A program made the position numbers. DNA of 64,000 nt from Escherichia coli O157:H7 (GTDB lineage Bacteria > Pseudomonadota > Gammaproteobacteria > Enterobacterales > Enterobacteriaceae): NCBI RefSeq assembly GCF_013167455.1, contig NZ_CP038328.1. One strand, 5' to 3'. Below, piece after piece: positions 45,001 to 48,000 of this stretch. Every line of letters begins with the position of its first letter. The stretch's first letter is position 1.

Positions 45001-48000
45001 GATTATGGGTTGATATTTATAAAGAAGCACAGCATGCAGGGGAAGTTCCTCCTGGATGGAATCCTCCGGAGGCTACCCGTAAACCGATCCCTAAAGTAAC
45101 CAGAGCCAGGCTCACCATGGAAGACTGGCAAAAAATTTACAATGCAACGCCTGAAAAACACTTTATCCGTAACGCAATGCTTCTTGCGATTGTTACTGGT
45201 CAGCGCCGTGATGACATTTGCCACATGCGTTTTTCAGATGTGTGGAACGAACACTTGCATATCACCCAGGGAAAAACCGGAATGCGTCTGGCGTTACCGC
45301 TTACACTACGCTGTGATGCCATTGGGATAACGTTAAAAGAAGTTATTGATGGGTGCCGAGACAGAATATTAAGTCCATATCTAATCCATAGTCGGCACCA
45401 GAAACAACCGAAGCCGATGAGTAAAGACAACCTGAGCGACTACTTTGCCAAAGCACGGGATCTGGCTGGGGTAATTCCACCAGCAGGAAAAACTCCGCCA
45501 ACATTTCATGAACAACGCTCTCTATCAGAACGGCTGTACCGTGCACAGGGTATCGATACAAAAACATTACTAGGACATAAAGTCCAGGCAACCACCGATC
45601 GCTATAACGATACTCGAGGTCAGGAATGGGTTAAGTTGGTTATTTGACAAACACCATATGGAATATCCGTCACCATCTCAGGAAAAAAGTGTTGTAAAAT
45701 GCGTGGCCTAGTTTTGGGGAAACGTTTTGGAGAGATTTTGGAGAAAGGAAAAAATTGAATAAATTCAAAATCCTGAAAGTGTCCCGCCTTATGAATAAAA
45801 AGGTGGAACTCGAATGATCGGTCGACTGCTTCGCGGCGGTTTTATGACCGCTATCTACGCGTACCTGTATATCCCAATCATTATTTTGATTGTGAACTCC
45901 TTTAACAGCTCGCGCTTTGGCATCAACTGGCAGGGTTTTACCACCAAATGGTATAGCCTGCTGATGAACAACGACAGCCTGTTACAGGCAGCGCAGCATT
46001 CACTAACAATGGCGGTGTTTTCGGCGACGTTTGCTACGCTTATCGGTTCACTGACGGCAGTTGCGCTGTACCGTTATCGCTTTCGTGGTAAGCCGTTCGT
46101 TAGCGGAATGCTGTTTGTGGTGATGATGTCACCAGATATCGTGATGGCGATTTCGCTGCTGGTGCTGTTTATGCTGCTGGGTATTCAGCTTGGCTTCTGG
46201 TCGCTGCTGTTCTCGCATATCACCTTCTGCCTGCCATTTGTGGTGGTGACGGTGTATTCGCGCCTGAAAGGTTTTGACGTGCGGATGCTGGAAGCGGCGA
46301 AAGATCTCGGTGCCAGCGAATTTACCATTCTGCGAAAAATCATTCTGCCACTGGCAATGCCAGCGGTGGCGGCAGGCTGGGTGTTAAGCTTTACCCTGTC
46401 GATGGACGATGTGGTGGTTTCTTCGTTCGTCACCGGGCCGAGTTATGAAATTCTGCCGTTAAAAATTTATTCGATGGTCAAAGTCGGCGTATCGCCGGAA
46501 GTTAACGCGCTGGCAACCATATTACTGGTGCTGTCGCTGGTGATGGTTATTGCCAGCCAGCTTATTGCTCGTGATAAAACGAAAGGTAACACAGGGGACG
46601 TTAAATGAAAAAATGGTCACGCCACCTGCTCGCGGCGGGTGCTCTGGCACTGGGCATGAGCGCCGCTCACGCCGATGACAACAACACGCTGTATTTCTAC
46701 AACTGGACCGAGTACGTGCCGCCAGGACTGCTTGAACAGTTCACCAAAGAAACCGGTATTAAGGTTATCTATTCGACTTACGAGTCGAACGAAACCATGT
46801 ATGCCAAGCTGAAAACGTACAAAGACGGTGCCTATGACCTGGTGGTTCCTTCAACCTATTACGTCGATAAAATGCGTAAAGAAGGGATGATCCAGAAGAT
46901 CGACAAGTCGAAGTTAACGAACTTCAGCAATCTCGATCCAGACATGCTCAATAAGCCGTTTGACCCGAATAACGATTACTCCATTCCGTATATCTGGGGT
47001 GCGACGGCGATTGGCGTTAACGGTGATGCGGTGGATCCGAAATCTGTCACCAGCTGGGCCGATTTGTGGAAGCCTGAGTACAAAGGCAGCCTGCTGCTGA
47101 CCGACGATGCCCGTGAAGTGTTCCAGATGGCGCTACGTAAGCTGGGCTACTCCGGTAACACCACCGATCCGAAAGAGATTGAAGCTGCATATAACGAGCT
47201 GAAAAAACTGATGCCAAACGTCGCAGCGTTTAACTCCGATAACCCGGCTAACCCGTACATGGAAGGCGAAGTTAACCTCGGCATGATCTGGAACGGTTCT
47301 GCTTTCGTTGCACGCCAGGCGGGTACGCCTATTGACGTGGTGTGGCCGAAAGAAGGCGGCATATTCTGGATGGACAGCCTGGCGATCCCGGCAAATGCCA
47401 AAAACAAAGAAGGCGCGCTGAAATTGATCAACTTCCTGCTGCGCCCGGATGTGGCAAAACAGGTTGCTGAAACTATCGGTTATCCAACGCCAAACCTTGC
47501 GGCGCGTAAGCTGTTAAGTCCAGAAGTGGCGAACGATAAGACGCTCTCCCCGGATGCTGAAACCATTAAAAATGGCGAATGGCAGAATGACGTTGGCGCA
47601 GCCAGCAGCATTTATGAAGAGTATTATCAGAAGCTGAAAGCAGGACGTTAATTCAGCAAGCGGGCGGTGGTATTACCGCCCGTTTTTTAGTTAGCAAGGA
47701 TGTGGCTAATGAGTCAGGACAGTAAAGTTTTATCCCGCTCTTTCGTCGGTATTGTGGTCCGCTTGTAGGCCTGATAAGCGTAGCGCATCAGGCAATGCTT
47801 CCTGCTTTATAATCCCTTCAGCAACTTTTCAACAAATTCTGGCACCACCTGGCTTGCCGGGCCGTAATATTTCTCGGCAAATTCATTACCGACCTGACTT
47901 GGTTCAAGATTCAGCTCCACGGTGTGCGCGCCATGCAGTTTCGCTTCGTGAACAAACCCAGCCGCCGGATAAACATGCCCGGAAGTACCAATGGCAATGA

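Follow-up and report, generated by a model that had tools for sequence, protein, structure and literature searches.

The lambda-like Sp6 prophage in potB of Escherichia coli O157:H7: its junction on the integrase side and the candidate arm-type integrase sites

In a stretch of 64,000 nucleotides from the chromosome of Escherichia coli O157:H7 (assembly GCF_013167455.1, contig NZ_CP038328.1; hereafter the window), the stop codon of a phage integrase gene is separated from potC by 166 bp that carry no annotated feature. The question raised by this locus is which part of the interval belongs to the phage, which to the host, and what is bound by three short repeats lying within it. A reading frame that crosses the interval and ends at 45817 reads ...KFKILKVSRLMNKKVELE before its stop codon and has a same-frame stop upstream at 45695-45697. 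A previous sequence-only reading had recognised as PotB-like only the last 11 or so residues of this frame, and had proposed that a phage was integrated in the 3′ end of potB. Comparison with PotB of strain K-12, whose C-terminus is ...LLVYWRASRLLNKKVELE (in a longer stretch, ...VYWRASRLLNKKVELE), agreed with the first of these claims, as 10 of the 11 final residues of the frame matched. The possibility that the whole upstream frame is native potB was checked against the same reference, which showed no match anywhere upstream of those residues.

The window region is 100% identical to O157:H7 chromosomes of E. coli. When its DNA was compared with uninterrupted potB-potC genomes, as the sequence-only reading had advised, identity began only at 45792, 144 bp beyond the end of the integrase gene at 45647. 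The intervening DNA (45648..45791), absent from uninterrupted potB-potC genomes, constitutes the P′ arm of the phage attachment site. It is followed by the heptanucleotide TGAATAA (45792..45798; potB codons 278-280) and by the orphaned native 3′ end of potB (45799..45817, + strand), which begins with the third base of codon 280 and goes on to encode K V E L E before the stop codon. This orphaned end includes a host half-site, AAAGGT, and the Shine-Dalgarno sequence of potC, and equals K-12 except for an A at 45799. The start codon of potC (45814..46608, + strand) overlaps the potB stop codon (ATGA), and potD comes next. Host DNA thus accounts for only about the last 6-8 codons of the frame within the window. 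The frame itself is P′-arm phage DNA fused to the orphaned tail of native potB, and is not a gene. Positions 45648-45817 are where the lambda-like prophage Sp6 (PP_potB) meets host DNA on its integrase side, the attL of lambda nomenclature, made up of P′ arm, overlap and host half-site.

The rest of potB was located with the help of O157 strain Z892, where it is found some 2.6 kb left of position 1 of the window, at the other end of a prophage of ca. 48.4 kb. With host identity starting at 45792 and the remaining potB some 48.4 kb away, the proposed integration in the potB 3′ end was borne out. In strain Z892 the far junction reads ...CGTCTGC-TGAATAAGAAGG-CAACAGAAATAGATAATTAG and then enters phage DNA (espK, espN). 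The phage had also been proposed to supply a substitute terminus for PotB. Such a terminus does exist, but it is found at the far junction and not in the 45700-45817 frame originally quoted for it: PotB of lysogens consists of residues 1-281 plus a phage-encoded tail of six residues that replaces VELE-stop. Following the retained NKK, this tail reads ATEIDN-stop in O157 and VSELDD-stop in another phage type, both unrelated to VELE-stop, and it explains why RefSeq PotB has 287 aa in lysogens versus 285 aa in K-12. At least two strongly diverged P-arm types were seen to share one integrase and one P′ arm, giving different PotB tails.

The element is the same as Sp6 of strain Sakai (PP_potB, 'prophage at potC'), with identical integrase, excisionase and junctions, the same 48.4 kb and the same position between potB and potC. 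The Sakai annotation gives 'prophage Sp6; lambda-like phage' at 1541611..1590033, abutting potC, and the window and far junctions are the reverse complements of Sp6 'L' and 'R', respectively. Spontaneous Sp6 circles have been detected and their attP PCR product sequenced (Asadulghani et al. 2009, PMC2669165), and a marked Sp6 was shown to insert into that locus of K-12 as well (PMC2669165). The sequences in Fig. S5 of that paper, once reverse-complemented, correspond to the two junctions, in the window and at the far end, and to an attP of sequence CCTTA-TGAATAA-GAAGGCAACA, a 22-mer by the printed coordinates (PMC2669165). Three further papers (PMC9997748, PMC11052207 and PMC8065619) likewise count the potB/potC interval among prophage loci. 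The integration site and the core are already known (PMC2669165). The published descriptions of the Sp6 attP that were consulted give the short core only; arm-type sites, a 7-bp overlap and IHF sites were not found in them.

The attP of the circle combines the left flank of the window junction with the right flank of the far junction. The same contiguity of P′ and P arms is carried independently by an IMG/VR contig with an intact attP, in which the P′ arm of the window is joined to a P arm. A degenerate attP pattern retrieved two contigs from IMG/VR, and the exact O157-type pattern none. A matching core had been expected at the prophage's opposite end, and TGAATAA was indeed present in both junctions. 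Three-way alignment of the two junctions with the K-12 attB left TGAATAA(G/A)AAGG as the only common block, and TGAATAA is the sole stretch identical in both junctions, attB and attP. In the published circle sequence the base following TGAATAA is a G that comes from the potB-side junction, which places the exchange within TGAATAA and gives a 7-bp overlap as in lambda. Accordingly, attP can be written as ...GTGTCCCGCCTTA-TGAATAA-GAAGGCAACAG... and attB as ...CGTCTGC-TGAATAA-AAAGGTGGAAC..., or, in a shorter scheme, ...GCCTTA-TGAATAA-GAAGGC... and ...GTCTGC-TGAATAA-AAAGGT.... The overlap plus one base, TGAATAAA, occurs in a second exact copy at 45756-45763, 36 bp inside the P′ arm.

The single difference between the orphaned potB end and K-12 bears on where the exchange ends. 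At 45799 the window has A and K-12 has G (potB codon AAA or AAG, both Lys). This base was surveyed in rows evenly spaced down the ranking of 5371 matching genomes. Among 42 sampled rows with uninterrupted sites, 15 carried A (strains 042 and HS are examples), and the other 27, K-12 with its G among them, had one mismatch to the A query. Lysogens varied too, 8 sampled rows matching the A query exactly and 10 not, and in a separate search a junction query with the G allele was matched exactly by 394 of 1625 lysogens. A45799 is a natural synonymous polymorphism of host potB on the host side of the crossover, which, with the lysogens varying as well, fits a crossover confined to TGAATAA. A phage origin of A45799, with the crossover to its right, was considered and is ruled out by the circle sequence and by the A allele in many empty sites.

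Flanking the overlap, attP contains an inverted repeat, GCCTTA|TGAATAA|GAAGGC, with half-sites that were read by eye. Of these, GCCTTA (45786..45791, + strand) abuts the overlap in the window and is a candidate core-type Int half-site, and its CCTTA is invariant among P′-arm variants. On the right side of attB an ACCTT can be read by eye, whereas the left half-site of attB, GTTTGC, fits CCTT poorly. The residues 'SRL' that precede MNKK in the frame ending at 45817 are encoded by phage sequence adjoining the overlap. Variant P′ arms read VLHLMNKK, and since 'SRL' is not conserved as protein in them it is not a conserved coding remnant. Its resemblance to PotB more likely reflects similarity between core-type half-sites.

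The gene just upstream of the P′ arm (44529..45647, + strand; ECs_1501 in Sakai Sp6) encodes a lambda-type tyrosine integrase of 372 aa. Pfam searches revealed an Arm-DNA-bind_1 domain (PF09003) at residues 1-64 (E 3.8e-21) and a Phage_integrase domain (PF00589) at 194-363. The protein is 35% identical to lambda Int, with the catalytic residues R212, K235, H308, R311, H333 and Y342 of lambda all aligned; matches at 44% that were considered as the identity to lambda Int proved to be other lambdoid integrases. An excisionase gene, xis, was placed at 44291..44560 (+ strand) from the RefSeq annotation at the equivalent position of an identical O157 genome. That annotation thus has Xis, a recombination directionality factor, encoded next to int; the Pfam Exc match of the protein was at the cut-off (23.0 bits, with a threshold of 23). 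In domain architecture and catalytic residues of the integrase, in having xis upstream of int and in the 7-bp overlap, the system resembles lambda. Its core differs from that of lambda and lies inside coding sequence, and 144 bp separate the int stop codon from the core, whereas in lambda P′3 abuts int.

The sequence-only reading had also pointed to three TTTTGGRGA repeats in the position of P′ arm-type sites. They start at 45712, 45725 and 45736 on the + strand, and only one further copy occurs in the 64 kb, where 1.3 would be expected by chance. Short units and unequal spacers kept Tandem Repeats Finder from detecting them; another repeat search recovered them. Distances were measured from the overlap centre on the reconstructed attP, with the int side positive. 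The outermost, P′3-like candidate, TTTTGGGGAA (45712..45721), spans +74..+83, the P′2-like candidate, TTTTGGAGAG (45725..45734), +61..+70, and the P′1-like candidate nearest the core, TTTTGGAGAA (45736..45745), +50..+59, all of them on the + strand. The corresponding lambda sites lie at +74..83 (P′3), +63..72 (P′2) and +53..62 (P′1). The P arm contains a direct copy, TTTTGGAGAA, at -136..-127, compared with -143..-134 for lambda P1, and this copy forms an invariant island in five lysogens with strongly diverged P arms. Among six P′ arms the few SNPs fell in spacers or adjoining the core and none in the repeats; with so little variation in the P′ arm from one lysogen to the next, this conservation by itself counts as weak evidence. 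In the P arm of the EC5 type a further direct copy of the arm motif, TTTTCGAGAA, may be present at -150..-141.

Repeats this short in an AT-rich arm might be a functionless product of chance or slippage in low-complexity DNA, with 'SRLMNKK' then an old capture of the potB 3′ end of another species, an origin to which the 'SRL' codons lend some colour in that they differ from potB mostly at synonymous positions. This explanation is very improbable. None of 3000 shuffles of the window had three copies within 40 bp, the motif is unchanged among P arms that have diverged and turns up again behind related int genes, its sequence co-varying, and the 'SRL' codons are lost in variant arms.

In the P arm, a perfect IHF consensus was found at -118..-106 and a site with one mismatch at -49..-37, both conserved across three P-arm types and mirroring lambda H1 (-126..-114) and H2 (-48..-36). 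The attachment site resembles that of lambda in three direct arm repeats at +50..+83, a direct copy near -130 and IHF consensus sites near -115 and -45. Unlike lambda, it has no recognisable inverted P2 and no clear H′. A scan of the P′ arm, the stretch from the core to the repeats, where lambda has H′, included, found no IHF consensus with one mismatch or fewer. A weak candidate H′-like site, ATTCAAAATCCTG (45763..45775, + strand), was picked by eye next to an A6 tract and has two mismatches to WATCAANNNNTTR. No inverted P2-like copy of the arm motif with up to two mismatches was found in attP; lambda requires P2 for excision. The arm motif, too, is unrelated to that of lambda (TTTTGGRGAA versus MAGTCACTAT).

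The weightiest evidence on the repeats came from four related integrases (38-44% identity across the N-terminal 80 aa), each with three tandem repeats just past the int stop codon. These are GTTTTGGGGAA in a prophage at icd, TTTTGGGGAAGA-type repeats in a Providencia phage, GTTTTGATAA in a Klebsiella phage and GTTTTGCAGAG in phages at ompW, in every case three copies 3′ of int. Changes in the repeat's variable half go along with differences in a strand region of the N-domain, LYxKxDxRxGxxYxQYK, the variants compared being LYxKxDxRxG..QYK, LYPLFSRKVNK..RYK and LSPYFDKRNNK..RYR. A further relative, vB_EcoM-689R6, known from a partial prophage record, had no repeat triplet of this kind.

The icd prophage, of the phage 21/e14 type (segment L003, 919-2107), has an integrase 44% identical to that of the potB phage and arm repeats of the same motif family, and is likewise integrated in the 3′ end of a protein-coding gene. 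Its repeats lie 12 bp past the integrase stop codon (NZ_CP062758.1; segment L003, 2073-2107), and much farther from the expected crossover than those of the potB phage. The prophage itself sits in the same genome outside the window, ca. 24 kb to the left of the Sp6 potB-side junction. Reportedly, 'repeated dodecamers' were proposed in 1997 as the arm sites of phage 21. Phages at icd carry a long replacement copy (about 160 bp) of the 3′ end of their target gene (PMC6379469). By contrast to the 21/e14 icd phages, no long copy of the potB 3′ end is present here; 12 bp are shared, and the substitute tail consists of six unrelated codons.

The repeats could instead be sites for a protein other than the Int N-domain, such as Xis, Fis, a repressor or an accessory factor. 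A second direct repeat, AGGAAAAAAKTG, brackets the cluster, and in this respect the arm may hold other sites. It occurs as AGGAAAAAAGTG and AGGAAAAAATTG at 45680-45691 and 45746-45757. Such a role is unlikely, given that, among the relatives, a different N-domain of the integrase goes with a different repeat sequence and that copies stand in both arms at the distances of lambda P1 and P′. In lambda, moreover, the Xis and Fis sites are in the int-distal P arm and not in P′, which likewise counts against another protein. The three TTTTGGRGA repeats are very probably integrase arm-binding sites; the lambda P′1-P′3 distances and the comparative evidence agree with the position originally assigned to them, and together argue strongly for arm-type Int binding as, by a wide margin, the best explanation of their presence. 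The model as a whole, a Sp6 attL in potB with a 7-bp overlap, acted upon by a lambda-type Int with TTTTGGRGAA arm sites, is highly probable from the sequence comparisons.

By this model the integrase would be a heterobivalent tyrosine recombinase of the lambda type. Its C-terminal domains would bind the inverted CCTT-type half-sites flanking the overlap, and its N-terminal arm-binding domain the three direct TTTTGGRGAA repeats (+50..+83) together with the fourth copy, on the P side (-136..-127). Bending of the P arm at the IHF-type sites (-118..-106 and -49..-37) would let a single integrase molecule span arm and core, as happens in the lambda intasome, and Xis, encoded alongside, would steer the reaction to excision. 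The lambda paradigm is not challenged by any of this. The arm sites are a straightforward, ordinary instance of it, with a well-supported refinement of the anatomy of the attachment site.

The interval might also serve host gene expression. The prophage separates potC from the potA promoter, and xis, int and potCD share one orientation, and the space from int to potC holds neither an annotated gene nor a predicted + strand terminator; a weak hairpin at 45173-45188 lies inside int, and no convincing terminator was seen before potC. An ORF of 20 codons, MNKFKILKVSRLMNKKVELE, runs from a TTG at 45755 to the TGA at 45817, behind a well-spaced Shine-Dalgarno sequence, GGAGAAAGGA, and ends in the potC ATGA overlap; it might couple translation into potC in lysogens. 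From these features the P′ arm could be thought to double as an expression signal for potC, with the ORF restoring the coupling lost with potAB and the repeats being there partly for that purpose. This is improbable, marginally more so than binding by a protein other than Int. The potC gene retains a Shine-Dalgarno sequence (AAGGTGG, 45800-45806) and a start codon of its own, a promoter scan of 45400-45900 revealed no promoter-like site, and the same repeat architecture is found at the icd and ompW integrations, where such coupling is unneeded. The ORF, furthermore, changes to VLHLMNKK in arm variants and shows no sign of constraint at the protein level.

Farther upstream, a near-consensus promoter-like site (TTGACA-17-TATAGT, 42718-42746, + strand) was noticed a little way downstream of a short ORF for a CI-like repressor (42133-42609). 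Its orientation is that of xis, int and potCD, and it might have to do with the spontaneous excision reported for Sp6 and with transcription of potCD. Rfam searches over 43000-47000 gave no match at E<=1.

A broader proposal, rather doubtful though less so than the other roles considered for the repeats, is that the potB, icd, ompW, Klebsiella and Providencia integrases share a GTTTTG-NNNN scaffold read by the N-domain, and that the P′ arm together with read-through sustains potCD. A few residues in the β-strand region of the N-domain would recognise the repeat's variable half, and, as a separate point, read-through from the co-oriented repressor-xis-int transcription unit of the prophage, with the P′ arm, might sustain potCD expression in the roughly 30% of complete E. 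coli genomes with this junction. If true, the first of these would amount to a simple, re-programmable code for arm specificity, and the shared GTTTTG-type arm motif offers a modest lead for integrase specificity.

For annotation, the analysis fixes the exact phage/host boundary at 45792-45798 and removes the quoted frame from the genes. The junction of int, P′ arm and potC (query 45734-45809) was found in 1625 of 5426 complete E. coli genomes (30%), spread over many lineages and not in O157 alone. With the junction this common, a precise attP model of overlap, arm sites and IHF sites helps to delimit and type PP_potB prophages, whose cargo includes type III effectors, EspK and EspN among them. 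No free phage with the Sp6 integrase was found in INPHARED; the only two records with it are prophage-derived and potC-flanked, and the next-best integrase match is 49% identical. In strain B19695 (NZ_CP196120.1; segment L021, 1297-1497) this int and P′ arm continue beyond TGAATAAAAAG into DNA other than potC, namely an IrmA-family gene, which may represent insertion at a secondary site or a rearrangement.
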